Of a stretch of 64,000 nucleotides of DNA, positions 33,501 through 60,136 are shown in pieces (position 1 is the stretch's first letter; each line of letters begins with the position of its first letter). Under the pieces are notes generated by a model. That model was not told where the DNA came from, did no database searches, and was given only the letters and a program-made list of their open reading frames with translations. The position numbers and the translations under genes were made by a program. Where the stretch lies: the NCBI GenBank assembly GCA_026770705.1, contig JANJGN010000032.1, positions 16,554,001 to 16,618,000 on the forward strand, given 5' to 3'. This DNA comes from Isurus oxyrinchus (lineage: Eukaryota).

Positions 33501-36500
33501 AGCTAGAAAAAGGTGGAGAGGTGGTTCTGTTAATTAATGGTGGTATCAGCACAATATAGAGGGATGACCTAAGTTCAGGAACCAGGATGTAGAAGCAGTT
33601 TGGGTAGAAATGGGAAATGATAAAGGCAAGAAGTCACTTGTGGGAGTGCTGTATAGACCCCCTAGCAGTAACCACACGGTAGGGTGGGGTATAAAGGAAG
33701 AAATAATGGGAGCTTGTCAGAAAAGTACAGTGATAATCATGGGGGTTTTTAATCTATATGTAGACTGGAAAAATTAGATGGGCCATGGTAGCCTAGTTGA
33801 GGAATTCATAATTTCTTAGAACAGCACGTTCTGGTGCCAACCAGAGAGCAGGCTGTACTAGACCTGGTATTGTGCGACACAATAGGATTAATTCATGACC
33901 CTAGCTAGCAGTGATCATAATATAATTGAATTTTACATTCAGTTTGAGGGAGAGAAGAGCGGATCTAAAAAAACAGCAAAGAATAACTATAAGATTAATA
34001 AGGAGGGAAAAATTTGAGTACAAGAGAAAGCTAGCTAGAAATATAAAGACATAGTAATAGCTTCTATAGTTATTTAAATAAGAAAAGAATTAACAAAGTA
34101 AACATTGGTCATATAGAAACTGAGCCTGGGGAATTAATAATGGAAAATAAAGAGATGGCAGATGAATTGAACAAGTATTTTGCATAGGCCTTCACTATAG
34201 AGGATACAAGTAATGTCCCAGAAATAGCTGTAAATCAGGAAATGGAAGAAAGGGAGGAACTCAAAATTACAATCACCAGGGCTGTGGTACTGAGCAAATT
34301 GTTGGAGCTGCGAGCTGACAAGTCCCCAGGTCCTGATAGGCTTAATCTGAGGGTGTTGAAAGAAGTGGCTAGTGAGATAGTTGATGCGTTGGTTTTCAAA
34401 ATTCCCTAGATTAGATTCTATTAGATTGGAAAATAGCAAATATAACTCCTTTATTCAAAAAGGGAGGGAGTCAGAAAACAGGAAAATACAGGCCAGTTAG
34501 CTTAACATGGGAACAATATTAGAAGCTATTATTAAAGATGTTATAGCAGGGCACTTAGATGAATTCAAGGTAATCAGTTAGAGTCCAACATAATTTTGTG
34601 AGAGGGTAATCATGTTTAACCAATTTATTGGAATTCTTTGAAGCAGTATGGTGCTGTGGATAAAGGGGAGCCAGTGGATATACTGTAGTTAGATTTATGG
34701 AAGTCATTTGATAAGGTGCCACATAAAGGTTATTGTGGAAAATAAAAGCTCGTGGTGTAGCGGGTAATGTATTGGCATGGATAAAAGATTGGCTAACTAA
34801 CAGGAAACAGAAGGCATAAATGGGTCATTTTCTGGTTGGCAGGATATAACAAGTAATGTGCCACAGGGATCAGCACTGGGGCCTTAACTTTTTGCAATTT
34901 ATATAAATGATATGGATGAAGGGACCAATGGCATGGTTACTAAATTTGCTGTTGACACAAAGATAGTTAGGAAAGTAAGTTGTGAAGAGGACATAAGGAT
35001 TGGATAACAAATGGATATCGATAGGTTAAGTGAGTAGACAAAGATCTGGCAAACGGAGTACAATGTGAGAAAATGCGAAATTGTCCATTTAGGCAATGCA
35101 TACTATCTAAATAGTGAGAGATTGCAGAACTCAGAGATGCAGAGGGACCTGGGTGTTCTAGTGCATGAATCACAAAAGGTTAGAATGCAGGTACAGCAAG
35201 TAATTAGGAAAGCTGATAAAATGTTATTGTTTATTGCGAGGGGAATTGAATACAAAAGTAGGGAGGTTATGCTTCAGCTGTGCAGGGCATTGGTGAGACC
35301 ACATCTGGAGTACTGTGTACAGTGTTGGTCTCCTTATTTAAGAAGGGTGTAAATGTGTTGAAAGCAGTTCAGAGGAGGTTTACTAGACTAATACTTGTAG
35401 TGGATGGATTGTCTTATGAGGAAAGGTTGGCAAACTAGGCTTGTTGCTGGAGCTTAGAAGAGCAAGAGGTGATTTGATTGAAACAAAATCCTGAGAGGTC
35501 TTGACAGGGTGGATCTTCCTCTTGTGGGAGAATCTAGAACTGGGGGTTACTGTTTAAAAATGAGGGGTTGCCCATTTAAGATGGAGATGATGAGAATTTC
35601 TTTCTCTGAGGGTCATGAGTCTTTGGAACACCCTTTCTCAAAAGGTGGTGGAAGCAGAGTCTTTGAATATTTTCAAGGCAGAGGTAGATAGATTCTTGAT
35701 AAGGGGACGAAAGGTTATTGCGGGTAGGTGGGAATGTGGAGTTGAGATTACAGTCAGATCAGCCATGATCTTATTGAATGGCAGAGCAGGCTCGAGGGGC
35801 CAAGTGGCCTACTCCTGCTCCTAATTTGTATGTTTGCATATAAATTCTGGAGAAAATAGACCTAATTTGCTCAGCCTCTCATCATAGGACAACCCCCCTC
35901 ATTCCAGGGACCAATTTAGTGAACCTTTGCTGTACCATCTCTAATGCAAGCATATCTTTTAAATGTGGAGACCAAAACTGCATATGGTACTCCAAATGTG
36001 GTCTCACCAAAACCCTGTACAATTCTAGCAAGTCTTCTTTATTCCTGTACTCCAATCCCCTTGCAATGAAAATCGTTATTCCTGTACTCCAATCCCCTTG
36101 CAATGAAAATCGTTATTCCTGTACTCCAATCCCCTTGCAGTGAAGACCTTTATTCTTGTACTCCAATCCCCTTGCAGTGAAAATCGTTATTCCTGTACTC
36201 CAATCCCCTTGCAATGAAAATCGTTATTCCTGTACTCCAGTCTCCTTGCAGCGAAGACCTTTATTCTTGTACTCCAATCCCCTTGCAATGAAAATCGTTA
36301 TTCCTGTACTCCAATCCCCTTTCAGTGAAGACCTTTATTCCTGTACTCCTATCGCCTTGCAATGAATATCGTTATTCCTGTACTCTAATCCCCTTGCAGT
36401 GAAGACCAACATGCCATTTGCCTTCCTAATTGGCCACACCATCATCACAATTCTCTAGTTGGAATAGTTGGTGGACATCTAGCCATGCAGGAAGCTTCAG

Positions 36501-42500: not shown

Positions 42501-45500
42501 GCAATGGAGGCTCTTGTGGACGAGGTCAAGAATTTTGAAAGCGTTGCATTGGGAAGTGGAGGTTGGCATGAATAGGGATGATTGGCAGTGGGACTTGATG
42601 TGCAGCAGGATGTGAGTGATGGAGTTTTGGATGATGCAATTTGTAAAGTATTTTTGATAGAGGAATTGATTGTATTTTGACTGTCATTTTAAAGAATATA
42701 TTGATAACTAATGTTTTTGTTTCAAAACCTTATAATGGTTGTTTTTGCTTTTTCTTTTCAGGAAACTGCCTCAGAGTGTCCAGTGAAGGAAAGAATTGTA
42801 GTGCATCATTATAGTAATAATATGTCGATCCTTGATGTTCACCAGCTTCCCATAATACAACCAGAGAACTCTCCACCCTCATCCCCAAGTGTATCATCAC
42901 CTGGGACTCCAGCAGAGTCAAGTAAGCCTGACCTACCAGTTGAGTCACCAAAGATTAAGCATTCTCTCGCACTGGACGAAAAGCAGTTTGAGGAACCACA
43001 GCCACAAATGAAGAGGTGGAGGGGAATACGTTGGAAACGTTTGGAATTTAAAGTCATATTTCACAAGGGGAAGTTTAAGCATGTATCTCAGCATGAAATT
43101 GAAGAACTCATTCAGAAACTGGGGACATCATTAAAACCAGACCCCATGCCCAAGGACACTAGGAGATGCTGTTTCTGTCATGAAGAAGGTGATGGAATAA
43201 CAGATGGACCTGCAAGACTCTTGAACCTTGACTTGGATTTGTGGGTCCACTTAAACTGTGCATTGTGGTCTTCTGAAGTGTACGAGACTCAGGCAGGAGC
43301 ACTAATAAATGTGGAAGTGGCTTTCCACCGAGGACTTACCACAAAGTGTGCTTTTTGTCAGAAGACTGGAGCAACTACTGGTTGCCATCGGGTCCGATGC
43401 CCAAACACCTATCATTTTGCTTGTGCTATCCGTGCCCGTTGTATGTTTTTTAAGGACAAGACTATGCTTTGCAGTCAACACAAACTGAAAGGAGCTAACG
43501 AACAGGAAATTAGGTGTTTTGCTGTTTACCGCCGTGTCTACATTCAGAGAGACGAGGTGAAGCAGATTGCTAGCATTGTACAGCGTGGCAAGCGCAGTCA
43601 CATGTTCAGGGTTGGTGGACTGATTTTCCACACCATTGGTCAGTTACTCCCCCATCAGATGCAGGAATTCCACAGTGTGACAGCTCTTTATCCAATTGGA
43701 TATGAAGCAACACGTATTTATTGGAGCATGCGATACACTAACAAACGTTGCTGCTACCACTGCACCATCAATGATACTAATGGGAAACCAGAGTTTGGCA
43801 TCCAGGTTATTGAGCAAGGACATGAGGATCTGATTGTTACTGATTGGACCCCACAAGGTAAGAGCAGTCTACAGTGGTCAGGATAAAGAATTTTTTTAAC
43901 TGAACAATACAATGATAGATTTTCCAACAACTTATAAGTTAGCGACATAAATCTTTGATTTCCTCACCTATCCTTCCCTCACGGCTAAAATTACCTGTAT
44001 AAAGTTACATCTCATTGTGGTTTTCTTGTGTATCTTGCCATGGCACTTCGAATGCATTATTTTGACTGCCACTTATTAGTTTTATTGTGTCATCCTGTGT
44101 AACCTTAGAATCGGGAGGCAGTGGTGTAGTGATATTATCACTGGACTGGTAATCCAGAGACCCAGGATAATGCTCTTGGGATTCAAGTTCAAATCCCACC
44201 ACAGCAGATGGTGGGATTTGAATTCAATAAAAAAGAAATCTGGAATTAAAAATCTAATGATGACCATGAAACCATTGCCGACTGTTTTAGGGAAGGAAAT
44301 CTGCTGCCCTTGCCTCGTCTGGCCTACATGTGACTCCAGATCTGCAATAATGTGGTTGACAAGGGCAATTAGGGATGGGCAATAAATTCTGGTCTTGCCA
44401 ACGACACATCTCGTGAACAAATTTAAAAAAAGTTCATGCTGTTGCTTTATTATTTATAATTGGATGGTTTTGTAATTCTCTATAATATCCCTAAATTTTT
44501 TATATGTTCTTAATTATATAATATAAATGGATTGCTTTTCAAAATGGTTAGTGCAGAATGAATGGTCCAAATGGTCATCTCCTGTGTTATGAGCTAATGT
44601 GCTGAGCTAATTATTGTTGTGTTAGTAACTTTAGTTCAATCGCCTCTGCATAGGAAACTAATAATTTCCATCATCACCATGCACAATCAGGTAATCTCTT
44701 CATGCATTTCCCTATGCTGTACCAGTTTTATTTTAGACTGCACTGTTAGTCAGTTCCTCATGCCATTGTCAGTATATTAGCAGAGCAAGTTGACATCATA
44801 ATTTATCAACTTTACTTTTGTTTGTCTTAAACTCAGACCTTGCTTGTTGACTAATTACTATTTCAGCAAAACTTTTTTCTATTATTTGCTCCTGTCAAAT
44901 TACCTAAGCCATCTTCCGATTAGCCTTATTAGTCAAATGTACCTTGGAGTACTCATCCTATTATTCAAAAGATCTTGGGCAAAATCATCCCAAGGCTTAA
45001 AGCAGCAGATGCACTTTCACCACCCTGAACAGGTTCGGGGAAATATTAGGCTTTTTGTCTTCATTGTATTTTGCTGGAACCTCCTTTTAAATGCAATTCC
45101 AAGGCAAAATGTTTAAACTATGGGAGAGGATATATGGTCCCTTATGGTACCAAGCTCTTAATGGCAGCGTGTTTCAGAGGCCCTCCACCGCCCCCCTCCC
45201 CCCCAACCCCGGATGTAGACAGCCTAAATGTGTGTAGTTAAGCAATATTAAAAACATGAAGATCATCATATCAAGGGCTTAAACAGTCTCCCCAATCCTT
45301 CATTGTGAATCTTTAGTAGCCTGGCGGAAAATCAGAAGAAACCTGCTCCAGTCAAAACAAATAGATTTGAGTGATTTGTGACCCTGGAATTCATACTTGT
45401 GACTTTGTGGACAACTTTGTGATGCATTTTGTGGATGATCCGTTCTCTGACACTCTGTTAGTACAACAGAACTTCATGCCCATCATTTCTCAGTACATTT

Positions 45501-48500: not shown

Positions 48501-51500
48501 GGCATAATACTGTATCTCATTCAGTTTTGCACACCTGGAGAAATGTTCAGTGGTAGCTGACAAGTTCAGAAAGCCAAGGCTAAATTTTAAACTTCCAACT
48601 TTCTAGTAGCGAATCCAGTGTTCTGCTGCTACAACGAGCTACTGGGTCTCAAAAGCCTATTATAAAAACAATGAGTAATGTGATATAACTTTATTTTTCA
48701 CTTTATTATCTTACTGGCCTGTGTAAAAGTATTGTATGTAGAGAGCACTAGTACCTCAAACACATTTTTAGTCTTTAGATAGGATTACGACAATCCCTTT
48801 GAGAATCTAAAGACTTTGGTTCAGGGGAGCCTTACCTTATTGGAAAAATGATTAGCAAATATAATGTTAAGTATTATAGAATTTAAATTGTCCAAGTATA
48901 AATGTTAATTTTTTCCCTACATAACTTAACAGGCCGCACACCTTGAACAGTACCAGCACATCAAAAGCATTTCAGAGTACAGTAACTGGAGAAATTAACA
49001 CTCCCTACAGCAAGCAATTTGTCCACTCCAAATCCTCTCAGTACCGCCGGCTGAAAACTGAGTGGAAAAATAATGTTTACCTGGCTCGATCACGAATACA
49101 GGTGAGTCAGCACCAGCATGATGTGAAATACCAATTAAAAAGATTGTGTGCTCTGAAATCAAATTATTTTCTCATTTGTTTAGTATTTGCCATCCTCCAT
49201 GGTGGATGGAGGGAAGAATTTGACTGAAAATCCAATTTCCTAGGAATAACATCTCAAGATACTCAGGCCTTTGCATAACCACCATTTAGTAATATAGTAA
49301 CATAGTAATCACTTACTATATTTATATATAGGTTTCATTCATGATCACATTCTTGGGTGGTTCTTCTGCTATCATTGATACCAGTCTTCATTGTATATTT
49401 ATATGCAAAGGGGAAACCTTCCTTTGGGATTTTTCTGTATTGTCCGTAAGATACTGGTGTTTCATAGTAGTAGTTCCGAGATAGATTTCAACAAAGTTTT
49501 AGCTTCACACATTACCATTGTTGCTGTCTCAACCTGTAATGCACCTCATTATTTTTGGCGCCTTGGTCTTGGCTCACCTAGGCCCATCTTGGGTGTATTA
49601 CTTCCAATTGAAGTATGCTCCTGGCTTCAAGGGGATATTAATAGTTATCAATTCTTCTCCACAGCCAATAACCATGACACCTGTTTGCATTTTCTTTTGA
49701 TACCCTTTTACCTTCAGAGGCTTAAAACCTGCTCCAAATTCAGCAGAAGAGCCCTTTGTCTGCTTTACTGAAAGACTGATAAGTATATCTAATCTCAGTT
49801 CTTTCAAACGATTTTTCCATGAAGCCCACCTTTTAAAGCTCAAACATCTGATGCAGTCGGGGTAAATAGAGAACATTTTCAAGAGTGATCCCAACATAGA
49901 GAAACTCCTGGAGCCAGCATCTCTTGCTGGTTGATTTGGCTATACAGAAGGTGAATTGCTGTCCTGTGACCTGCCTAGTAACTCCCTCCACCAATTTTAT
50001 AATTCTTCAAACTTTTGGAATCTGCAGTCTCCATGGTGCCTCTGGACACTGGAGTATCAATTTAAAATTGAACGTAGTTGTCTTGAGCAAGCTGCAAGGA
50101 TAGCAATCCTCAGCCTTTGGAGTAGTTCTGTTACATAAAAGTAGATTTAAAAACAAGATCAATACAACTGCCTTAAATTGACTAGAACCAGTTTAATGTG
50201 GAACATTTGAGCTCAAGTTGTTTTCAAAGAGGAATCTTGATAATTACAATAGATGGAGGTATCTGTAACTGTCGTCTACATTGTTAGCTGCTTCTGTCAA
50301 CAAAAAATGTGTAGAGCTCTTATGCAGTAAAAGAAATGTATGACTTGATATCTAGCATGAAACTTGAGTATGGCCCCATCTATTTTGCTTGTTCAGATGA
50401 TGAACCAATGCAAAAGTACATGCAGCTTAATTTACACTTGAATGGGTGATGGACTGCACTGGATGTATTAATATTTTTGAAATGTGCCAGCATAATATTC
50501 TTCTGCTTGTGTAAACTGGGAATCGCGAGCTCCTACTGGAAACGTATGGTATATCCACAGGTTAAACCTTGTGACACTTGGTCACAAATAATGGAACCTG
50601 GACAGGAGTCAATTAACTTCTCTCAGTGAAGGTTATGATAGAAAACAAAAACAGAATTACCTGGAAAAACTCAGCAGGTCTGGCAGCATCGGCGGAGAAG
50701 AAAAGAGTTGACGTTTCGAGTCTTCATGACCCTTCGACAGAACTTGATTTCGAGTCCAGGAAAGAGTTGAAATAAGAATCTGATAGAATTATGATAGAAT
50801 TCATTTCAATATTTATTTTACCTTTGTTTTTTTTTTCTGCTCCATAGGGTCTGGGTCTCTATGCAGCCAAAGACCTTGAGAAGCACACAATGGTGATTGA
50901 ATATATAGGGACAATCATTCGCAATGAGGTTGCAAACCGCAGGGAGAAGTTGTATGAGACTCAGGTATGGATTAACCATCACTGTGCATGGTATTGCATA
51001 CAGCTTCAAGCACAATTACTACAAATGGGCTGTTGAACACTTTTTATTTTCAGGTCATTGAAATCTACAGGTGCCAAAATTGCTTTTCAATTATTCAAGG
51101 TTAAAATAGAAAAAAGCATCAGTGGTGGACATATCATGTTGCCAGCAGTTCACATTATCCCACCAAATTTAAGTGGCTACCCAATTTGCACCTTTCATTG
51201 GTAAATCATGGGCTTATGACTGCAATCCTCTTGCATACATAATTCTCAGTCTCAGCCATTCTGCTATGGTGAATTGCCACGTAGAATTCAGCTACCTCCC
51301 TTCAGGAAAGGGTAGTCATCTCCTTTGGGCTCCTTTTCCCACACCATTCAGCAACCAGTTTCAGAGCAACATTGGAGGCACTGGAAACAGGTTGGCCATT
51401 CTTAGTTGGGGGGTTGTATTTGCCACAGGAAAATCCAAGCAAAATGTTTATGTATGGTAACATTATGTTCTGTGTTTGACCATTATTTTCAAAAGGGGTA

Positions 51501-54500
51501 ATGCATAAATATTTGAAAATGAAACATTTAAAAAGCTATAGGCAGGAAAATTGGACTAAGTGAAATCACCCCTTCAGAGAGATGACACAGGCAGATGGGT
51601 TCAGTGGTTGGATTCTATGATTGTACTGAGAGATACATTCGCTAACTCGAATTAATCCTAATAAATGTCACAATCTGGCTTGTGTCAGAGTGATACTATA
51701 TAATTCTTTAGGTGCAATGGTGAATGCTGTATTAGTGTATAAACTGTACATTGATGTATATGAGGATATGTTATAAGCATCATGTTAAGTACATACTAAA
51801 TATATTTGCTGTCATATATAAATAATTGTCAAATAACCTGTACTAGAGAATGCATGGTAGATTGCATGCTATCTGCTCGAACCATTCAACTTTCTGCAGC
51901 TCTCATCACCCTGTATCCCATCGAATGGCTGCATGATTGCCAGGGTCTTTCTTTGGGGTCATTTTGGTCCGCTTTTGGTTGTCCTACTGCTAATCTTCTG
52001 TGCCCCACTACTGTGTTTCCTGGTGTTGATGCTGGTTTCGATTTTAACTGATGTAAAGCTCTGAGAACCAAGGAAATAAAGTGAATATACTATTGTGAAT
52101 CAGAAATGCTGAAAATGAACAAGTCAGTCAGCTTCTCTAAAGAAGAAAGACAGGTTGATGTTTCTGTTGCAGGGGATTTCTTCAGGACTCCGGTCTTGCA
52201 TTGGAACATTGGCCTTCTTTATACAAAGGTGCTGACTGACTTGCGTATTTCTGACATTTTCTCTTTTTGTTCACAATATTTTAAAGCTACTACTGTTGTG
52301 CATACAGAGAATAGAGAAAACCAAAAAGGAGGAAGAATGTTGTTTAAAAAAAAAACTGGGACATGAAACATGACACATACAGAAGAAAAATAAAAATAGG
52401 AAAGATAGGAGAAAAACATAACATTAAACCACTCTTTGATTCCTAACTTAATAGGTATTTTGCAGCATCTCAATTTCCTTGGGTGTGAAGACCAGAATAT
52501 ACCATTACCTCAATCAAGATTTGCTGATGTTCCATAATCTCATGCTCTAGAAATATTTGAAAGAAAATTGGTTGTTAGTTGAGTTTAGGAGCAAGTGATA
52601 TATCATGATATTGGATTCTGTCTTCCTGCCACGGTACCTATAGAGCTGAAAGCAAAACTGTCAAAAGAAAGTTCTAGCTTGTTGCTTTTTGTATGGTTTG
52701 GTACCTGAAGGAAGAGCAATGACTTTTAATTCTAAACACAAGCATTTGTGTATTTTGTTTGTACATAGATTTGATTGGCAGTTCTCTGAGCATAAGGCAT
52801 GTATCAAAATCTCTGTTGCCTCGGTTGCTTTTGTCTTTCGAAAGTATGTTACCTTTTGCATAAAAAAGATGATTGTTGAAAGCCATGGGATATATAGACT
52901 GGAGAGATTCTGGTGGGATTTTCTGGCCCCTCACGGGCAGGACCTGCCGCAGGCGAAACGGTACCCCAGCCAGAAGTCCATTGACTTGCGGCGGGACCAG
53001 AAGATCCCGGCGGCAGGCAGGTGTGGAAAATCCCGCCCTCTGTCAGAAGCAAACCAACGCAGAGTGGTTAATGTTCATCAGGGACTTTTGCGTTCAATCC
53101 AGTTTAAATTATAATTAAGCAAAACAGATGTGAATGTTATTTTTTCTATTGTATCTGAGGAGTGTGTTCTGTAAAGCTATAGTATGTCATTTGTTATGAT
53201 CCTGGATCAGACCCCCAAATGTTTGGTACGATCCAGTTAGGGGCCATTAACTACTTGTTTTAAAATAGATAGTGTTTGAGATTCGAGACACTTTCTAAAA
53301 GAATAAAGCCACAAGATTCCACTGGTTCTGAGCAAACAAATATAAACTTTACTATCCAAGGTCAGAAAGATAAAACTATTTACAATATCTACACTAACAT
53401 TCAGGGTTAATATGAGGTTCATGTGAATTAATGGCCAAACTGGTCAAACACCACACTGCACTATAAATGGCAAGTGCGACCAAGACAGATTCCATGGATT
53501 TCTCAACAACTCACCCAGGCATCACTAAACAGTGTGAGTTAACCAATCTTGTTGAAACTCTGCCTCTCTCACGAGGGATTCCAGTCTTCACCTTCTAAGA
53601 TCTCACCTTGGAACTCTGTCCAAAAGTCGCTCCAATTCAGACGGCATAAATGACGGCCCATCTCACAAGGTTTCAATCTTATCTCCCAAGACTCTGTTTC
53701 CCTGGATTCTCAAGTCTGCATTCCAGCACCAACTCACAAGCACAACTTCAGCTATTCAGCCATGCTGAGCAGAACACCACTGCTCCAAAGGGTTACCTTT
53801 GATCCAGCGGCCCACAGCACAGAGTCTCCAACCTTCTGCTGCTTCCTTAGATCTTCAGGATTTCTCCCAAGTCCTTTTCAATTGCCAGGTCTTCTCCTGA
53901 GCCCTCTTCAACTTTTCTGCTTGGAACCTCTTTCTCTGCTCTTCTTAACTGGGACCTCTCCGTCCCCTCTCTCTTTGGGAAATCTCCCTGTCCCCTGCCT
54001 GGATCTCTTGTCCGATTATAGTGCCCCGCTCCTGATCACACGATCCAGTTTTTGCACCTTTTTTCCTTCACACAGGCGCACTGGGTGAGGACCGCCCTGA
54101 AGAGCTACAAATGCCGGATTGCACATGCGCCACCTGCTCCAGGAACGCACATGCGTGAAAGTCCCAAGTCATGCTGTGAATTGTCATTCCCGGCCCCCTG
54201 ATATGCTAAGTTTGGATCTCCTAACCCCTCCCCTTGGGCGAAAAGTCCTCACCATTGTGAAGCCTTTACAATGGCTATAAGTACTTAAGGCATTTGTTGG
54301 AAAGTTTATGATGTAATTGCATACTGTACAGATAAACTCTTCATTTTGTTCCACAATTACACATGTCATATTATAAAGGTACAAAGACTTGACCAAAACG
54401 AAAGCCAGTACATGTGACAAATAGGATTAGTAGGATTCAAACATCATGGAATTATCATAACTTGGAACCTGGGCCAGGATTTTCCCGTTGGCAAGTGGGG

Positions 54501-57500
54501 GTGGGGCCCGCTCGCCGACACACAAAATGCCGTGTGGTGACATCAGGCAGAACTCCTGACGTCACCGCGCCCCATTTAAATTTTCAGGTAGGCAGACGTT
54601 CAGCAAAATCAGCTGTGCGGCTGCCGACCTGTCAATGGCTAATTGAGGCCATTGACAGAGTCATTAAAGTAATTAATGGACCTGCCTGTCCAACCTTAAG
54701 GTTGGTGGGCAGGCCAGGAGCCCTGGCGGGCATTAAAAAAAGCATGAAACCTCAACCATGGGTGGGATGAGGTTTCACGTAGGTTTTTAAAAATTTAATT
54801 AAAGTGTTTTTAAAAGTTATGGACATGTCCCAACTCATGTGACAGTGTCACATGAGGGGACATGTCAGGGAATATTTTTTTCTCTATTTTTAATGTTTTC
54901 AATGTGCAACAGATCTCCCTGAGGCAGCACTTTGCCTCGGAGATGAGTGCGTTCATTCGTGTGCGTGCGCGAAAGAGCACACTCTTAGGCTTAGGGATTC
55001 CCTCCCACCCGCCCAGGGAGCACGCAGCACTTTTGTGCAGACATCACATTGGGTGGGCCTTATCTGGCCTGCCCACGTTAAATGGCGGCGCTCCCCCAAT
55101 CGGGGTACCGATCGGCATGCCTCCGCACGCCTGATCTTCAACTCTCCCCCCCCCAGCCCCCCAACAGGGGGAGAATTCTGCCCCTGGAGTTTTCTGACGC
55201 CCTTTCTTTAAACTCTGGACAGAACACCAACAACTAAATTGTTTTTTTTCCCATAATCTTTTCACAGTCAACCAAAGGTTGAAGATACATTTAAGTGTTC
55301 TTTAGAAACATCTTGACCAGCTTCTGTTTCTCTTTTGCGCCATGGGCTTTCAACCTTTCTGGTGTAACTGCAAACCAATAGTCTGGCAGTCTTCCCCGCT
55401 TCACATGATGCATATTAGTCAAGCTATGATACAAATGACTTTTGCGTAGGATTCTCAACTTTAATACAGAAGAACATAGGGTTTTTCTCACTCTTTCCCC
55501 TCTGTTGATGGAAACTTGCCTTCAGTGGATCCTTTAAGTTTGCTACAGAAAGCGTGTATGTCTGGTTGACAAAATTATCTTTTTCACTCACTTCCTCCAT
55601 GACAGATTTTGTCGTTTCATTGTTTTGATCCACACAAGATGAATACACCTGCACTGAGGGAGTTTTCCTCTCTTTGCTTAAATCATTTTCCATCTTATCC
55701 AAGAGATATGCTACAGCCTTCTGCACATGTTCATATCCTTCTTGCTGACGCTTGGAAAATGGAATCTTCATCTCCATTTCTTCCACAATTTCATCCAAAT
55801 ATTTGTTTAATCTCTTATTTTCCAACTCTTTTCCAAGTGTGTTAATCTTTCCATTCAGCTCAGCAACAGCTCTGGTGAATTCAGCTGTCTTTGTCTCAGA
55901 GTCATCTGCGGAACCCTTAAACAAGCTTAACAACTTCACATGGACATTCAGTTCATTTCGGAATCTTACCTCCATGAGCACTGACTGGTCCTTAGACTTT
56001 TTCAATTCTCCCATTAGATCCTCGATCTGCTTCTTCAAATTTTCGTTAGCTGCTTTTAAAGTCTGGATCTGCTCTCCCATACCGTACATCTCATCCTTTT
56101 TATTTTCCAGCTTGCATTGGGGTTCAAGCATTTCATTGCTCTTTTCATGACAAAGTTCCAACAGTTCATCAGTCTTGGGTTTTAATTTGGCACTCAATCA
56201 TTGATTCTTCAGCAATCCCTTTTTCTGTTCAAGGCATTTTTCACAATATTTAAGTTTTAATTGAAGACCTATCTTCTTTGAATTTGCTCCAAATATTTAT
56301 CATTTAGACATTTCAAGTCCTCATTCAAGTGTACTACTTCCTTTGACCAACACTCAAGTGTTCTCACCAGTTCTCGTTTGCATTAGCAAACCCCTCTTTT
56401 GTTGGAGCAAGTTGGTTCTCCATACTGATTAGCCTTTCCTGCATTTGCTCGTTATCAGCAATAAGTTTGTGTTTGGCCGCAGTAATTTTGGGAGGGTTTG
56501 GCAAGGTCAGCATGATCAAGCACTGCTGCAACACAGTTGTCACCATGTTACCATCTATGCTGGCCAAATCGTTACCCAATCTAAAATCTACCCCTTCAGT
56601 AGACAGATGGAGCATGTCCATGCGTTGTGCCTTTTTCAATGAAACAAAAGCTTGGGGGAGGGTGCAGCCATTCCCTGGTTCATCCCCCATGGTAATGCTG
56701 TGACCAATCAGAGTTGACCTGCCTGGTTTGAATTTGAACAAAAGCTTGGCAGTTAACTGTTCCCTGGTACATTCTCCATGGCAATGCCTCTACCAATCAG
56801 AGAGCACTTGCCAACCAATCAGCACCCTCTTCTCATGCAGTATAAATTGTTGTTCCCTTTACTATTGATATTCTTGCGAACTGTCCTGATGACTGCAAGA
56901 CAAAATACTTTGACAGCATGTCTGTCTTTTTCAGCATTACAGATTTAAACTGTTAATGCTTACGAGCTTGTCCCTGAAGCATAAGTACTGCAGTGTTAAC
57001 CACCTCATCATCTGAGGATCATTCTTCCGAAAAGCTAGAATAGACATTCATGACCTTCCAGATCAAAGCACTTTGCAAAATTAGAGTCCACGTGTCCTTT
57101 GGCCATTTTAACTTTGTAGCTGCCTTTAAAAACAGGATAAAATACCTCTCAACTCCACCTTCAGTGATTTTAGGCACTATGCGAAGACTCTTTGTAATAT
57201 CAAAGCTGAGTCAGACTCAATTCCTCATTTGAACTACTAGACTCTCTTTTCACTTTGCAACCTAAGCTTTTCTATCTCAAGCTGCTTCATTTGCAGTTGA
57301 ATTCTAGCTAACTCAAGCTGTGTTATACCTGTCAGGCTTTTCTTCTAGTTCCAAATGCCACGCTATTACCGCAATTATTTCTGCTTTCTTAGCCCTGCTT
57401 TTAACTTTAACTTCAACTTTTTTGATAATGTGATTAGCCTAGCCCTGGTTAATTGTTACAAATCACTCTTGGATAAATCTTCCCTCTCCAGAAAAGTCAT

Positions 57501-60136
57501 AGCAATTGACAAAGCCATTCTGCTTTTCAATCAGTATAGTAAAATTCACCATGGAAATCCTATCAACCTTAACCTCAGCCAGTACCAGCACTTGTATTTG
57601 CCTGTGGATTCGAATTCCCACAATAGCCCATAATTTGTGTTCCTGGACCATACCCCCAAATGTTTGGTACAATCCAGTTAGGGACCAGTAACTTTTTTAT
57701 TTAAGAGTTTGAGATTCAAGACACTTGCTAAGAGAATAAAGTCACAAGATTCCATGGGTTCTGAGCAAACAAAAATTAACTTTACTCTGCAGGGTTGGAA
57801 TGATGAAACAATTTATAATATCTATCTCCTACTCTAACATTCAGGGTTAATATGTGGTACATGTGTATTAACAGGCAAATTGTGGTCAAACACAACACAC
57901 TGAACAATAAATGGCAGATGTGACCAAGATAGATTCCACGGATTTCTCAACAACCCACCCAGACATCAGTAAACAGAGTCAACCAATCTTGTTGAAACTC
58001 TGTCTCTCTCGTGAAGGAATCCAGTCTTCAGCTTTGAAGATCTTGCCTTGGGATTCTCGCAAAAGTCGCTCCAACTCGGACAGCCTACCTTGCAGGGTTT
58101 CAACCTTGTCTCCTGAAACTCTGTTCCCCTGGATTCCCGAGTTTGCATTCAGGCATCAAATCACAAGCACTACTTCAGCTCTTCAGTCTGAGCAGAATAC
58201 CACTACTTCAAAAGGTTACCTTTGCCCCAATGACCTACAGCATGGAGTAACCAACGTCTCCCATTGGGACCTCTCCCTGCCCCCTGCTTAGGGCTCTCCT
58301 CCCATTACGGCACTGTGCTCCCGATCACGTAAAATTTTTTTCGCGCCTTTTTTGCTTCACGTAGGTGCACTGGGCCCGTTCTCACCCTGGACAACTACAA
58401 AGCGCTGGGGTTGCGTATGTGCTACCCACTCAGGGTCCGCGCATGCGCAGAACTCCCGGAGTATGCTGGGAGTTGTAGTTTCCGACCCCCTGGTGACGAT
58501 ATGGTAAGTTTGGATCTGTAACACATTGCATCTATTCAATTCATTTACTGTTTGGTGGTTTATGGCCTCAGCCTTAGGTTGAGATCTTAGGAAGGGATTA
58601 GTGCAATAGCTTTGTTTTGTTAATTTAGCAGGTGGTTACTTAGATCTCAAAGCAAGGATATGGGACTTGCCCATGAGAGTGATCCAAGATGTACATGATA
58701 GCTAAAATAAAAAGTAAGATGGTTAGAAAAGATGCAAAAATATAACTGGGAGTGAGGATCACCTATGGAGTGGTCTGAGGCATCGAACCCAAGAAAAATA
58801 TTTAGAGTAACAATCCTTAAAATGTAATATTCCTTTTGTCCAAAAGTGTACAAATGTCACAGTAAATAATACTTGCCACTGCAAAAGATGTATCGGTGAC
58901 ATAGTGAAAAGGGTGCAATTCTGGCTCAATCCTGACCGACCCTCCTTGGCTGTACTCTTGTTGAGTTTTGTCTTTGACAGTATAGCTCCCTCAGCTCTCA
59001 GAAATGCACAGCTTTTAATTGAAGCATGGAGTTTCATCAATACTGAAAATTTTGGGAACTCTATAGTTTTATGAAAGGGGGATGTACAAGGAGTGGCAAG
59101 AGAAGTACAAGATCAGAAGCTAAGTTTGTTTTTGTTTTTTCTAGAATCGAGGTGTTTATATGTTTCGGATTAATAATGAACATGTGATTGATGCTACTTT
59201 AACCGGAGGCCCAGCCAGGTAAGTGACCATTTCTGTTGTGATGGCATCAACAAGAATGATTTGAGAATTGGATTGAAATAATTTTATATGGTAATAATTA
59301 ATGTTTATGGTAATTGACAAGCAAGGGTTTTGAATCTTTTGTAACACCTTGTAAGGATGTGAAACTTTTATCCCCTTGGTAGTCGCTGTTCCCTTTCCTT
59401 GCTGCCCCAATCTATACAGCCTTTGTGTCCAAGAGAACAGTGAGAAATCTACTTTCAGGCCATCAACAGTCTCGCCATAGGGGTGACCTTGAATGGAAAT
59501 GACATTATTTGAATAGTAGTGACATTGTGATTTATTTCATGTTCTTCATTTTACAGTTTGTTGTATTCTGAAAGTCCATACTTGACTACATTTTTTTCCT
59601 CCTCTTGTATTTTTGTACTGTTAAGTTGTTCTTTTTCTCTTTTTTTAAAAAAATACACTTAGAATCTTTCTCTCCTGTGCAGATATATCAATCATTCCTG
59701 TGCCCCCAACTGTGTGGCAGAGGTTGTGACCTTTGACAAGGAGGACAAAATAATCATTATCTCAAGCAGACGAATTCCAAAAGGAGAGGAGGTGAGTGGA
59801 AAACAGAGAAAACTAAAAGTTATTACATACTTGGCTGAGGAAATAATGTGGATAACTTAAATGAAAAGGTTTACAGCTGAACATTGCACAGTCTAAAATC
59901 GTCTATGTAAAGTTACGGAAAATTTATTTTACTCAGCTGGGAAGGCTTAACTACTACAGAATCAAAAATATATCAGTTGATGTCTGAATGTTGACTGTTC
60001 ATTGAACATTTTCTGTCTTAATAATGTTTTTTTCTTTCTTTAGCTGACTTATGACTATAAGTTTGATTTTGAAGACGATCAGCACAAGATTCCATGTCAT
60101 TGTGGAGCTCTCAACTGCAGAAAGTGGATGAACTAA
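6433..60136 (+). CDS. KMT2D: Histone-lysine N-methyltransferase 2D, 3' part (21 coding exons; the 5' exons lie upstream of the window)
   Basis: All exons have AG/GT boundaries with matching phases, 7997 coding nt in total. KMT2D-diagnostic peptides: [95 protein letters not shown]. The protein ends [13 protein letters not shown]. Confidence 0.96.
6803..6890 (+). CDS. KMT2D: KMT2D exon ([12 protein letters not shown]...GNSQ)
   Basis: tttag acceptor, gtactt donor, phase 2 to 0; [11 protein letters not shown] matches KMT2D. Confidence 0.92.
8716..8782 (+). CDS. KMT2D: KMT2D exon ([22 protein letters not shown])
   Basis: ttccag(cag) acceptor, gtaagt donor; RPNPPTF motif; alternative start at 8719. 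Confidence 0.9.
8920..10065 (-). mobile_element. CR1 ORF2 fragment (endonuclease and linker)
   Basis: Minus-strand ORFs with LAEVDW...[19 protein letters not shown]. Confidence 0.8.
11382..11614 (+). CDS. KMT2D: KMT2D exon, coiled coil ([11 protein letters not shown]...QKQLDQ)
   Basis: ttctag acceptor, gtaggg donor; nearly identical to the KMT2D coiled-coil segment. Confidence 0.97.
11740..12915 (+). mobile_element. 5'-truncated CR1 LINE (RT to 3' tail)
   Basis: [25 protein letters not shown]; tail ctctatgactctatga. Confidence 0.93.
13400..13905 (-). mobile_element. CR1 3' fragment
   Basis: Reverse-strand CR1 3' end; same subfamily as 22285-22772. Confidence 0.75.
14071..18489 (+). CDS. 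KMT2D: KMT2D giant Gln/Gly-rich exon (4419 nt; [12 protein letters not shown]...GNSE)
   Basis: ttttag acceptor, gttagt donor; open over 1473 codons; conserved ends [11 protein letters not shown] and LLLQKLLR (LxxLL). Confidence 0.95.
15841..16653 (+). repeat. Coding tandem repeat, about 22 units of 33-39 bp (QG[T/P]VG[M/I]GQQ..)
   Basis: Repeated caaggc(a/c)cagtggggatgggacagcaa units read directly from the sequence. Confidence 0.95.
19589..19741 (+). CDS. KMT2D: KMT2D exon ([10 protein letters not shown]...LMKQLQQ)
   Basis: tttacaag acceptor (alternative tttcag giving a start at 19604), gtacca donor; basic NLS-like stretch; phase 0 to 0. Confidence 0.85.
19905..21165 (+). mobile_element. 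CR1 3' fragment interrupted by a second LINE
   Basis: [12 protein letters not shown] before about 20000; the CR1 3' sequence resumes at about 20915. Confidence 0.75.
20016..20910 (+). mobile_element. 5'-truncated non-LTR retrotransposon (CR1/L2 group), RT C-terminus and tail
   Basis: [34 protein letters not shown]; tail gcaataaatgctggc..cacatcccatgaacgaa. Confidence 0.85.
21656..21820 (+). CDS. KMT2D: KMT2D exon ([10 protein letters not shown]...DYYSQLLYK)
   Basis: ccctag acceptor, gtaaat donor; LSLLPL.EP and DYYSQLL conserved. Confidence 0.95.
22285..22772 (-). mobile_element. CR1 3' fragment
   Basis: Colinear with 13400-13905. Confidence 0.75.
23343..23484 (+). CDS. KMT2D: KMT2D exon ([24 protein letters not shown]...)
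   Basis: tttag(cag) acceptor, gtatga donor; invariant Pro-rich motif. Confidence 0.95.
23695..25625 (+). mobile_element. CR1 RT fragment with deletions and a MITE insertion
   Basis: [45 protein letters not shown]. Confidence 0.9.
24561..25211. mobile_element. MITE of the same family, inserted in a CR1 RT region
   Basis: Same TIRs and internal sequence as 54471-55183; CR1 sequence resumes on both sides. Confidence 0.8.
25640..25922 (-). mobile_element. tRNA-derived SINE
   Basis: Minus strand TGGCGCAGTGG (A box) and GGTTCAAGTCC (B box). Confidence 0.65.
26040..26575 (+). mobile_element. Old CR1 3' fragment
   Basis: ctggagtattgtgttcaattc..., ttatgaggaaaggttg, ggggctgaatggcctattcctg. Confidence 0.7.
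27756..30450 (-). mobile_element. Penelope-like element: RT and GIY-YIG remnant with an inverted duplicate of the 3' end
   Basis: Minus strand: [29 protein letters not shown] and GYIDD. Plus strand from about 29657: [19 protein letters not shown]. Termini are inverted; flanking direct repeat tcttggaaca at 27746-27755 and 30451-30460. Confidence 0.9.
30663..30744 (+). CDS. KMT2D: KMT2D exon (DLLTTELK...[12 protein letters not shown])
   Basis: cacag acceptor, weak gttttt donor; LPTPPHNQ conserved; phases fit both neighbours. Confidence 0.85.
31226..31545 (+). mobile_element. tRNA-derived SINE with LINE-derived tail
   Basis: Head tgacgtagtggtaatatcactgga; tail gggcaattaggg..caataaatgctggccttgccagc..cacatcccatg. 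Confidence 0.8.
31688..31866 (+). CDS. KMT2D: KMT2D exon (…[11 protein letters not shown]…[11 protein letters not shown])
   Basis: aacag(tag) acceptor, gttggt donor; conserved peptide. Confidence 0.93.
32826..33205 (-). mobile_element. CR1 3' fragment
   Basis: Reverse CR1 3' UTR (ggagtagaccat..atcatgactgatct..caactccactttcctgcc). Confidence 0.75.
33206..35835 (+). mobile_element. CR1 ORF2, long degenerate copy (endonuclease to RT to 3' UTR)
   Basis: [26 protein letters not shown] motifs, [14 protein letters not shown]. Confidence 0.92.
35846..36432 (-). mobile_element. CR1 RT fragment containing a minisatellite
   Basis: [18 protein letters not shown] on the minus strand. Confidence 0.85.
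36039..36407. repeat. Minisatellite, 10 x 37 bp
   Basis: ttattcctgtactccaatccccttgcaatgaaaatcg units start at 36039, 36076, 36113 and so on to 36372. Confidence 0.95.
37758..37900 (+). CDS. KMT2D: KMT2D exon (VFPDTKP...SGAAAK)
   Basis: ccttag acceptor, gtaaat donor; VFPDTKP and GKG..V.V.L.VS.AAAK conserved. Confidence 0.92.
37972..38182. mobile_element. Palindromic Penelope-terminus remnant
   Basis: Inverted arms; flanking repeat tccatcttaact at 37960-37971 and 38183-38194. Confidence 0.85.
38421..38562 (+). CDS. KMT2D: KMT2D exon (DINRMM...MKIPGSYEV...)
   Basis: ttatag acceptor, gtatgt donor; LL.MKIP.SYEV conserved. Confidence 0.9.
38711..38858. mobile_element. Penelope-terminus remnant
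   Basis: aaatgctggaaatactcag...cagcatctg...gttaacgtttcagg followed by a partial inverted copy. Confidence 0.7.
39808..39948. mobile_element. Possible degenerate MITE
   Basis: Imperfect inverted ends caactttccctctaag ... cttcgaaggaacattg. Confidence 0.35.
40176..40309 (+). CDS. KMT2D: KMT2D exon (…[15 protein letters not shown]…)
   Basis: cttag acceptor, gtatgt donor; W.KQ.D..LPG.TLK conserved. Confidence 0.9.
40455..42005 (+). mobile_element. Relatively young 5'-truncated CR1 LINE
   Basis: Open 286-aa RT C-terminal frame (KFADDTK...[13 protein letters not shown]); [13 protein letters not shown]; ttatg-type tail. Confidence 0.95.
42190..42640 (-). mobile_element. Old L2-like LINE 3' fragment
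   Basis: Minus frame [12 protein letters not shown]...; purine-rich plus strand like 46290-47000. Confidence 0.5.
42762..43857 (+). CDS. KMT2D: KMT2D exon encoding extended PHD (ePHD) and FYRN
   Basis: ttttcag acceptor, gtaaga donor; [36 protein letters not shown]; FRVGGL; [13 protein letters not shown]. Confidence 0.98.
44112..44431 (+). mobile_element. tRNA-derived SINE, same family as 31226
   Basis: A box tggtgtagtg, B box agttcaaatcc; same body and tail. Confidence 0.85.
45839..45975 (+). CDS. KMT2D: KMT2D exon, FYRC
   Basis: ctcag acceptor, gtaaga donor; VWNRILEP...[17 protein letters not shown]. Confidence 0.97.
46290..47000 (-). mobile_element. L2-like LINE 3' fragment
   Basis: Minus [31 protein letters not shown]. 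Confidence 0.75.
47934..48064 (+). CDS. KMT2D: KMT2D exon, end of FYRC and WIN (WDR5-binding) motif GCARSE
   Basis: ctccag acceptor, gtaggt donor; [10 protein letters not shown]...[11 protein letters not shown]. Confidence 0.97.
48933..49101 (+). CDS. KMT2D: KMT2D exon, pre-SET to start of SET
   Basis: taacag acceptor, gtgagt donor; [33 protein letters not shown]. Confidence 0.97.
50644..50788 (-). mobile_element. Penelope-terminus remnant, same subfamily as 424-641
   Basis: Nearly identical to 460-560; flanking repeat ttatgatagaa at 50633-50643 and 50789-50799. Confidence 0.8.
50848..50964 (+). CDS. KMT2D: KMT2D exon, SET-N
   Basis: ccatag acceptor, gtatgg donor; [21 protein letters not shown]. 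Confidence 0.97.
52100..52272. mobile_element. Old, degenerate palindromic Penelope-terminus remnant
   Basis: aaatgctgaaaatg...agtcagtcagc mirrored by gctgactgact...catttt. Confidence 0.5.
52911..53038. mobile_element. Short GC-rich MITE
   Basis: TIR-like ends tggtgggattttc ... gaaaatcccgccc. Confidence 0.6.
53192..54226 (-). repeat. 3' LTR
   Basis: Colinear with 57633-58523 (e.g. cccccaaatgtttggtac, ctaacattcagggttaatatg, aaccaatcttgttgaaactctg, taagtttggatct); adjacent minus-strand PPT AAGGGGAGGGG at about 54225-54235. Confidence 0.9.
54471..55183. mobile_element. MITE with GGGC-starting TIRs (possibly PIF/Harbinger-derived), nested in the LTR element
   Basis: GGGCCAGGATTTTCCC ... GGGAGAATTCTGCCC; colinear with 24561-25211. 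Confidence 0.8.
55688..56546 (-). pseudogene. TPR: Processed, internally deleted fragment of nucleoprotein TPR (N-terminal coiled coil)
   Basis: Peptides [66 protein letters not shown] and [15 protein letters not shown] follow the vertebrate TPR N-terminus in order; no introns; frameshifts and a stop upstream of the 55424-56197 ORF. Confidence 0.9.
56590..56940 (+). mobile_element. Penelope-like element 3' fragment nested between gag and the TPR cargo
   Basis: Repeated CCAATCAG boxes, TATAAA and a decayed hammerhead CTGATGA..CAAAA..GTC at 56886-56922. Confidence 0.6.
56941..57518 (-). pseudogene. Degenerate, 3'-truncated gag (Gmr1-like, SCAN-related capsid N-terminal part)
   Basis: Manual translation with stops and frameshifts: [10 protein letters not shown]...[18 protein letters not shown]...[41 protein letters not shown]...SSDDEVV..AVL, then AYELVPEA in an inverted segment. 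Confidence 0.85.
57604..57630 (-). promoter_or_regulatory. Primer-binding site (tRNA-Leu/Ser-like)
   Basis: Minus strand TGGGCTATTGTGGGAATTCGAATCCAC starts TGG about 2 nt from the LTR; the plus strand resembles a tRNA T-arm plus CCA. Confidence 0.7.
57633..58523 (-). repeat. 5' LTR
   Basis: Second copy, about 130 bp shorter through an internal gap; ends TAACA; the PBS follows directly on the minus strand. Confidence 0.9.
59145..59218 (+). CDS. KMT2D: KMT2D exon, SET-I
   Basis: ttctag acceptor, gtaagt donor; [24 protein letters not shown]. Confidence 0.97.
59683..59791 (+). CDS. KMT2D: KMT2D exon, SET-C (RYINHSC)
   Basis: gtgcag acceptor, gtgagt donor; [10 protein letters not shown]...KGEE. 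Confidence 0.97.
60044..60136 (+). CDS. KMT2D: KMT2D last coding exon, post-SET and stop
   Basis: ctttag acceptor; [30 protein letters not shown] then TAA. Confidence 0.97.

Follow-up and report, generated by a model that had tools for sequence, protein, structure and literature searches.

In-frame carriage of host TPR exons by a dead, putatively Gmr1-like Gypsy family in a shark genome

Known cases of host-gene capture and the element in the window

Acutely transforming retroviruses are helper-dependent and carry gag-fused, captured host cDNA with internal deletions, and the N-terminus of TPR is known as a fusion partner from TPR-MET. The shark family described here differs from both in that no env was seen, the elements are germline only, and the captured protein sequence has no sign of selection. 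LTR-mediated retroposition in animals (Tan et al. 2016, PMC5131818) resembles the present case in placing a spliced host mRNA between discontinuous ends of an LTR element, in sense orientation and often in frame, with microsimilarity at the switch points and sometimes with two or more parental genes; the cases described there are young and single- or few-copy (e.g., 5 in zebrafish), whereas the shark chimera has hundreds of copies, has formed source lineages, and has had its cargo passed on to a second backbone. Maize Bs1, as summarized in PMC5131818, is likewise a non-autonomous LTR element with three host-gene pieces that was re-mobilized after capture, but it has 1–5 copies and one of the three pieces is out of frame, in contrast to at least 152 loci in a vertebrate, every piece being in frame. 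Elements of the Gmr1-like Gypsy type (10.1101/2025.03.03.638093) share a SCAN-type capsid and the PR-IN-RT-RH order with the pol-bearing siblings of the present element and are abundant in fish; in the shark family, integrase, RT, and nearly all of RNase H are replaced by host exons. In Drosophila TART-type elements, too, pieces of host genes became fixed in a retroelement family of high copy number, but, according to PMC13534243, these are non-LTR elements with piRNA-pathway genes acting at the RNA level, whereas the shark elements are LTR elements with a conserved open frame. The kind of event, LTR-mediated gene capture, is known; its scale, the chaining of three genes, the transfer between backbones, and the selection for frame rather than protein appear to be new. 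LTR-driven capture of host mRNA in animals has been known from single young retrocopies, and here it has given two large vertebrate families. In listings of openly accessible literature, no prior report was found; an entry in a subscription journal, a supplement, Repbase, or Dfam may exist.

The element lies on the minus strand of the window, i.e., the whole 64,000-nt stretch of Isurus oxyrinchus DNA that was analyzed, and is composed of the following parts.

57633..58523, minus strand: 5′ LTR of 891 nt, beginning TGTTA after a 4-nt target duplication (AATG)
57606..57630, minus strand: decayed primer-binding site (PBS)
56982..57518, minus strand: gag N-terminal remnant with stops and frameshifts throughout; SCAN, CCHC knuckle, and protease lie at the same place in sister copies
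56660..56981, plus strand: later insert of a very abundant repeat and a 29-nt inverted gag piece; ends approximate
56561..56602, minus strand: last codons of the aspartic protease, sharing the reading frame of the TPR start
56547..56560, minus strand: remnant of the host TPR 5′ UTR (host gcagacggtaac), with the capture junction at a short stretch in common with the protease end
55688..56546, minus strand: captured spliced TPR exons 1–12 (aa 1–462) with family deletions of 54, 13, 32, and 62 codons
55253..55687, minus strand: spliced exons captured from a GRAM/TLDc gene (OXR1/NCOA7 family), fused in frame to TPR; host exon end at ~55519
~55208..55252, minus strand: RNase H C-terminal codons and stop
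54472..55190, strand not given: later insertion of a 720-nt repeat, with a second copy at 24560–25158 of the window
54227..54471, minus strand: 3′ untranslated region, common to sister copies, with the polypurine tract (~54235–54227) at its end
53192..54226, minus strand: 3′ LTR of ~1035 nt with a decayed start, ending TAACA and followed by AATG

A reading made from the sequence alone (hereafter, the sequence-only reading) had bounded the LTR pair by TGTTA/TAACA and a CATT duplication, and the alignment agrees: the two LTRs are 78% identical over 650 nt and 69% over 262 nt (K2P 0.232 over 861 nt), and AATG (CATT on the plus strand) is found on both flanks. Contigs from separate sequencing runs match the locus closely, one of them spanning the edge of the 5′ LTR (58370–58629, 5 differences), and the element is therefore not an assembly artefact. 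RNA contigs matching the locus are short and of low depth only, and their source runs may contain DNA. The PBS is of a type that we take to be tRNA-Pro in better-kept copies, e.g., L022. The gag remnant noted 3′ of the PBS was also recovered, although broken by stops and frameshifts; ~900 nt of gag-protease is gone at the site of the later insert, which is presumably Penelope-like, and Pfam found no SCAN domain in the three frames of this copy, which has lost that part. An Rfam search gave no match of substance for the element or its later insert. The reported lack of RT, RNase H, and integrase holds for integrase and RT, neither of which appears in a three-frame reading of the window copy, but not for RNase H, the last codons of which are present. 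Likewise, the tail described as unknown is resolved into three parts: a piece of another host gene (55687 to ~55253), the end of RNase H (~55252–55208), and the later 720-nt repeat (55190–54472), which appears MITE-like from its GGGC...GCCC ends. The TPR piece of this copy has frameshifts, one stop, and a 10-codon deletion of its own, and all other copies read are dead as well.

Captured host exons and the retroelement backbone

The assignment of the cargo to TPR was confirmed by several lines of evidence. The 257-codon frame at 56197–55424 passed the Pfam cut-off for PF25481, and in a search of longer proteins its sole match among 2587 candidates was whale-shark TPR (E 9.5e-45, 57% identity); a search of solved structures with the same 257-aa frame gave nothing under E 0.2. 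The host TPR gene was located at C16:74.25–74.27 Mb, where 13 exons were mapped with AG/GT ends, and its product shares 93.6% identity with whale-shark TPR across 501 aa. The cargo corresponds to exons 1–12 without the 11 introns, up to aa 462, plus a few bases of 5′ UTR. A conserved TPR motif deleted from the cargo has a single genomic occurrence, and host TPR mRNA contigs (6.9–7.1 kb) contain the bases missing from the element. The aacATGg at 56546, which had been regarded as the cargo's own start, is indeed the host TPR start preceded by ~14 nt of host 5′ UTR, but it does not open a free-standing gene: because it lies in frame downstream of the GNDLA motif that ends the protease, this ATG is in the middle of a gag-protease-cargo frame.

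Two types of 5′ junction were found, one from the protease end to the 5′ UTR (type A, in the window copy and in L031, which retains TPR 1–80) and the other from a pol linker to codon 56 (type B). Short shared stretches are present at the protease-UTR and TPR-TLDc junctions, and one of ~10 nt, identified by eye, at the linker-TPR junction. Of the 37 copies examined first, 35 have the 32-codon deletion and 33 the 62-codon deletion, and other TPR deletions (54+13, 17, 49, and 11 codons) mark subfamilies. Three of the deletions are located at repeats of 7, 9, and 13 nt. Exon skipping was rejected as their origin; most breakpoints are off exon ends, and none was seen at a GT donor.

The second host gene forms the tail. 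In a TPR-less sibling (L094+L110), the RNase H terminal motif is interrupted by 770 nt of inserted sequence that includes the same tail. A host exon at C6:76.786 Mb aligns with this insert at 79% over 440 nt, and the insert extends beyond the GT end of the exon. In the C6 gene (76.79 Mb), a GRAM-like exon upstream is a lead only (Atlas 0.80 for the neighboring host exon), and TLDc exons lie 22 kb downstream on the same strand, which is the reason for the family name OXR1/NCOA7. We take the captured gene to be NCOA7 rather than OXR1. Both GRAM and TLDc domains are drawn for the OXR1/NCOA7 family in PMC4742741. The tail itself was not named by Pfam, PDB, or Atlas, the last giving a chordate cluster without a name at 0.96. 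We also considered the tail as a pol remnant and rejected this: it gave no match above shuffles against four unrelated pol-bearing elements, and RNase H is represented by its last codons only. TPR and the TLDc-gene piece are joined in frame at a shared GAA. In L112, the pol linker is fused directly to the TLDc-gene piece with no TPR, which is the layout expected for a precursor of the TPR-bearing form.

The window element is a dead copy, and the non-autonomous family to which it belongs is, judged by capsid type and domain order, most probably of the Gmr1-like Gypsy type, with the layout of LTR, SCAN-gag, protease, in-frame TPR exons, GRAM/TLDc exons, last RNase H codons, and LTR. Sister copies contain SCAN (above the Pfam cut-off with 28.2 bits in L036; E 2.5e-4 in L002), a CCHC knuckle, and a DTG protease ending in GNDLA. 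The PR-IN-RT-RH order, absent from the element, is found in its siblings: integrase follows the same protease-linker in 5/20 loci, one sibling (L102+L109) continues through RT-like and RNase H-like motifs identified by eye, and the nearest protein (P0008) has a SCAN-protease-integrase arrangement. These pol-bearing siblings, 75–77% alike, are likely helpers that would mobilize the element in trans. Four top integrase matches (L064–L067) were rejected as helpers, being members of other Gmr1-like families. In the copies read, no env-sized gap separates the RNase H end from the 3′ LTR.

Copy number, age, and a second backbone

The sequence-only reading had proposed a transducing, helper-dependent LTR family built like an acutely transforming retrovirus; the carriage of TPR at many loci with distinct target site duplications (TSDs) supports this, and mobilization by helpers is probable. 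Counting of the family gave at least 152 distinct genomic loci that match the TPR piece (113 + 12 + 13 + 14, obtained with several search handles), including complete copies with differing TSDs; 79 TPR-positive loci of the 152 were read as DNA. Searching the 4.98-Gb genome at the DNA level with the TPR stretch returned 1751 first-look candidates, 40 of which were scored; all 40 were strong and spread over many contigs (73–82% excluding the window itself, 73–100% including it). In a protein search, 83 loci were scored, and 10 of these also appear in the DNA list; the overlap of the two lists gives an estimate of ~330 copies, which is a low one because both searches favor well-kept copies. When loci were chosen by the tail alone, TPR was present in 13/16 (1 weak, 2 with none within 1 kb), and when they were chosen by the protease-linker alone, TPR was present in 14/20. 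A same-length protein search with the cargo matched none of 539 candidates, i.e., it found no annotated stand-alone product, which has no bearing on other species.

Paired LTRs, PBS, polypurine tract, and short TSDs are all present in the family. Among the 7 copies extended, TSDs (AATG, ACCC, and CTCAT) were found in all three that have both ends. The LTRs of 8 pairs across the family differ by 0.18–0.28, indicating that the family is old and dead, and all copies read are now dead. The capture is old as well, since the copies retain the whale-shark residue at 6 of the 15 sites that differ between host and whale shark. RNA contigs of a second organism span the TPR-TLDc junction at ~83%, and the family is therefore common to more than one species.

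In five of seven loci fetched from the protein search, a UACA coiled coil was found upstream of TPR aa ~98. The assignment is based on 6 matches, all to UACA (best E 1e-41), and the UACA piece is cut by shared deletions of 34 and 151 codons. The UACA stretch gave 2847 first-look candidates, of which 40 were scored, at 75–85%, and 15 of the 16 UACA loci fetched continue into TPR, three of these partly. L048 is complete, with 270-nt LTRs that are 82% alike, a different PBS, and a 5-nt TSD with one mismatch; its LTR and 5′ interior have no match to the first (Gmr1-like) family, and the gag of this second backbone received no name from Pfam or PDB. The UACA-carrying backbone has the same 32- and 62-codon TPR deletions, and the TPR cargo thus has a single origin; the presence of the TPR piece on an unrelated LTR backbone therefore means that the cargo passed from one element family to another. 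When the tree is rooted on the host CDS, the 18 UACA-family copies group as a clade (100/96) whose tips are shorter and which falls within the first family. This nesting cannot be taken as proven, as an AU test does not reject monophyly of the first family (p 0.31); the probable direction of transfer, out of the Gmr1-like family, is judged from structure and not from the tree, because both capture junctions and the TPR-less precursors sit there.

Reading frame, amino acid sequence, and explanations for the cargo

All seven shared TPR deletions (54, 13, 17, 49, 11, 32, and 62 codons) remove whole codons, as do 2/2 shared UACA deletions. Exact repeats in the host TPR CDS are themselves in frame in 45% (≥3 nt), 66% (≥7 nt), and 88% (≥9 nt) of cases, and, after allowing for such microhomology bias, the chance of 7/7 in-frame deletions is ~0.024. 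The protease-TPR junction is in frame in 12/18 copies, 9 of them of modal length, and the linker-TPR junction has one in-frame length in 8/14. In 26 copies, 139 codons of the TPR frame past codon 446, into the tail, pass without a stop in common, compared with 11 and 18 codons in the other frames. None of 79 inherited amino acid changes, counted after dropping 14 at CpG codons, is a stop, versus 4.7 expected from private decay (P 0.0095). A shared stop usually closes the frame ~95 nt before the RNase H stop, and the RNase H terminal motif is in the TPR frame in 10/31 copies and in one other frame in 17/31. The K lineage (5 copies) has two CpG codons that are stops in 2/3 and 4/5 copies; these were attributed to CpG decay and left out of account. 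For the main group, the stops often seen at aa 224 and 277 were similarly rejected as inherited, with TGA and CAA co-occurring in a CpG-decay pattern. Frameshift bins common to all rows occur at deletion edges with 3–4 rows only and were taken as alignment noise. From these counts, rather than from any source sequence read, we infer that the source elements had an open frame.

The amino acid sequence behaves differently from the frame. Among the 58 copies kept (4 loci were dropped without a TPR match, and others for fewer than 100 clean codons), net omega between source lineages is 0.90 [0.53–1.60], 1.04 [0.56–2.25], and 0.88 [0.56–1.41]; the dN/dS below 1 anticipated for the cargo is not evident in these inherited values of 0.88–1.04. 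The intervals are wide, and weak constraint on the cargo may exist. Decay omega is 0.97–1.18, with stops at 1.3–2.0% of codons. A raw Nei-Gojobori omega of 0.5–0.6 was rejected as purifying selection, a neutral simulation giving 0.61, and the host-to-family omega of 0.24 includes the conserved host branch and is not creditable to the element. By BLOSUM score, inherited substitutions are not more conservative than private substitutions (−0.04 versus −0.10, p 0.47). In the single lineage that allowed the comparison, the knuckle-protease region (omega 0.87 [0.45–2.09]) and the TLDc piece (0.99) are likewise neutral. An intact frame under purifying selection, as expected of a functional TPR paralogue or domesticated gene, was not found. 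The copies constitute a fossil mutation-accumulation experiment that separates selection on frame from selection on amino acids, and they caution that a gene captured and in frame is not a captured function.

We consider that the cargo is translated filler that kept the frame of the RNA open, rather than a TPR decoy, with a probability of roughly 0.58. The host pieces were apparently retained as one frame since openness outweighed the encoded content. Template switching of a Gmr1-like Gypsy element (SCAN-gag, protease, integrase, RT, and RNase H) to host mRNAs produced non-autonomous derivatives, in which TLDc exons lie within the RNase H end and TPR exons 1–12 replace all between the protease and the TLDc piece; short-repeat deletions trimmed the cargo, and hundreds of copies spread. 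Capture of the TLDc gene would have come first, then that of TPR, and then the hand-over to the second backbone, with pol presumably supplied in trans by the pol-bearing siblings as helpers. In the proposed mechanism, translation of the source RNAs had to run to a stop close to the 3′ LTR, either to escape nonsense-mediated decay or for translation-coupled packaging, and such a need for read-through in the source elements would explain the loss of stops and frameshifts alongside drift of the amino acids. Coiled-coil mRNAs that are long, A-rich, and repeat-rich would be well suited as filler, because template switches, whether into them or inside them, have a tendency toward in-frame landing. 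The proposed link of nonsense-mediated decay and packaging to a stop near the 3′ LTR draws on general knowledge, and a literature search of titles and abstract starts found no paper testing it for LTR elements. The separation of the two kinds of selection makes it testable which features the RNA of a non-autonomous LTR element has to retain in cis. Filler alone gives no reason for the uptake of TPR by a backbone that already had UACA filler.

In a possible, though doubtful, alternative, the fused coiled coil was functional, either as a loose oligomerizing rod or spacer on Gag or as a TPR decoy aiding export of unspliced RNA or pore tethering. TPR holds back unspliced RNA, and the cargo is the dimerizing N-terminal rod of TPR, kept in sense and in frame across all lineages and, after the move to the second backbone, fused to a second coiled coil, UACA. 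Inherited prolines number 0 versus 2.7 expected (P 0.07; 0 in each of three groups), which hints at helix upkeep. Against these points, net omega is ~1 with BLOSUM scores no better than those of decay, the deletions of 54, 13, 17, 49, 11, 32, and 62 codons mostly break the heptad phase, and the TLDc-gene piece has the same frame-only pattern. The cargo also ends at aa 462, before most of the pore-binding segment, which presumably lies mostly beyond that residue. The specific decoy or pore tether suggested by the sequence-only reading is accordingly disfavored by neutral inherited amino acid changes, seven deletions without heptad-phase upkeep, and two further host genes taken in the same way. 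In a broader and equally tentative version, a guild of non-autonomous shark LTR elements assembled in-frame modules from host coiled-coil exons and passed them across unrelated backbones, and the TPR rod was kept and passed on since a Gag-TPR fusion aided spread as an oligomerizing spacer or nuclear-pore decoy; if true, a host nucleoporin domain was turned by a retrotransposon against the RNA-export gate of its host.

It is unlikely that no selection acted and that one lucky source element, with in-frame junctions as a by-product of switching at codon-biased microhomologies, accounts for the pattern. The in-frame bias of repeats in the host TPR CDS (45%/66%/88%), the location of three deletions on 7-, 9-, and 13-nt repeats, and an omega of ~1 everywhere are all consistent with it; even given that bias, however, 7/7 still has a chance of ~0.024, the 5′ UTR junction is free of the bias and yet in frame, and inherited stops are absent (P 0.0095).

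A role of the cargo as RNA, providing small RNAs against host TPR or host-like sequence that blunts silencing, is very improbable. Neutral amino acids are compatible with such a role, which needs no open frame, yet the frame is what is conserved. UACA and the TLDc gene are, to our knowledge, not silencing genes. A precedent exists in Drosophila TART elements, which captured nxf2, piwi, or aub; there, the captures are linked to host-targeting piRNAs and to higher copy number of the capturing families, and almost no host targeting is described at ~80% identity (PMC13534243). The source lineages of the shark family have drifted from the host by a net dS of 0.23–0.35.

No supporting point was found for an ordinary TPR retrocopy made by a LINE and inserted into one dead LTR element, and this explanation can be dismissed because the capture junctions are common to dispersed copies: at least 152 loci have the same junctions and deletions with differing TSDs, and both cargo ends are in-frame junctions at short shared stretches, with neither the poly(A) nor the TSD of its own that such a retrocopy would carry. 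The hundreds of TPR-, UACA-, and NCOA7/OXR1-like fragments will disturb shark gene annotation and read mapping.

TPR-less and least-deleted relatives of the first family

The 5' part of the OXR1/NCOA7-family piece, which is joined in frame to TPR in this non-autonomous Gmr1-like family, had only four matches in the whole genome, one of which is the host exon. Forms carrying this piece without TPR were rare, as against hundreds of TPR-bearing copies; they are listed here together with L031, a TPR-bearing copy:

C195:555050-560100, loci L094 and L110, TPR-less
C19:6299900-6300800, locus L112, TPR-less
C19:6317853-6318036, TPR-less
C8:54053600-54056300, locus L031, least-deleted TPR start

L031 retains TPR aa 1-80 whole, the least-deleted TPR start among the copies, and its TPR is broken after aa ~207 by a transposase-like insert, presumably Harbinger-like. 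A TLDc gene was found with identical scores in two places of the genome (G000), C5:154.07 Mb and C426:0.42-0.44 Mb, probably reflecting an unplaced duplicate haplotype.

The UACA–TPR family and other Gmr1-like families

Members of the second family, in which an unrelated LTR backbone carries UACA fused to TPR, include L048 (C22:20145400-20149400), L032-L035, L037, and L049-L063; this family may be larger than the first. Between LTRs of 270 nt, a short gag N-terminus is followed by UACA, TPR, and a tail ending in an RYGR.IRPP-like motif; the tail beyond TPR aa ~440 could be a fourth cargo. Loci L064-L067 represent further pol-bearing Gmr1-like families, three of them 82-83% alike and some with internal RT deletions. 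The genome search with the integrase query gave 39306 first-look candidates.

The window element and its surroundings

57660-57635 and 53219-53194, minus strand, final 30 nt of each LTR
14071-18498, plus strand, glutamine-rich exon (1475 codons, with 33-39-nt tandem repeats)
42708-43886, plus strand, PHD/FYRN-like exon
35962-36477, tandem array (37-nt unit, ~14 copies) within a LINE-like stretch
458-657 and 50634-50744, near-identical (97%) young repeat copies, one of which forms a short inverted pair

The final 30 nt of both LTRs (TTTGGGGGT.TG.TCCAGGA) are similar to the primer-binding site just after the 5' LTR. It looks as though an earlier such site had become part of the LTR. The element is antisense to, and downstream of, the glutamine-rich and PHD/FYRN-like exons, which we take to be KMT2D-like, and perhaps sits in a late intron.
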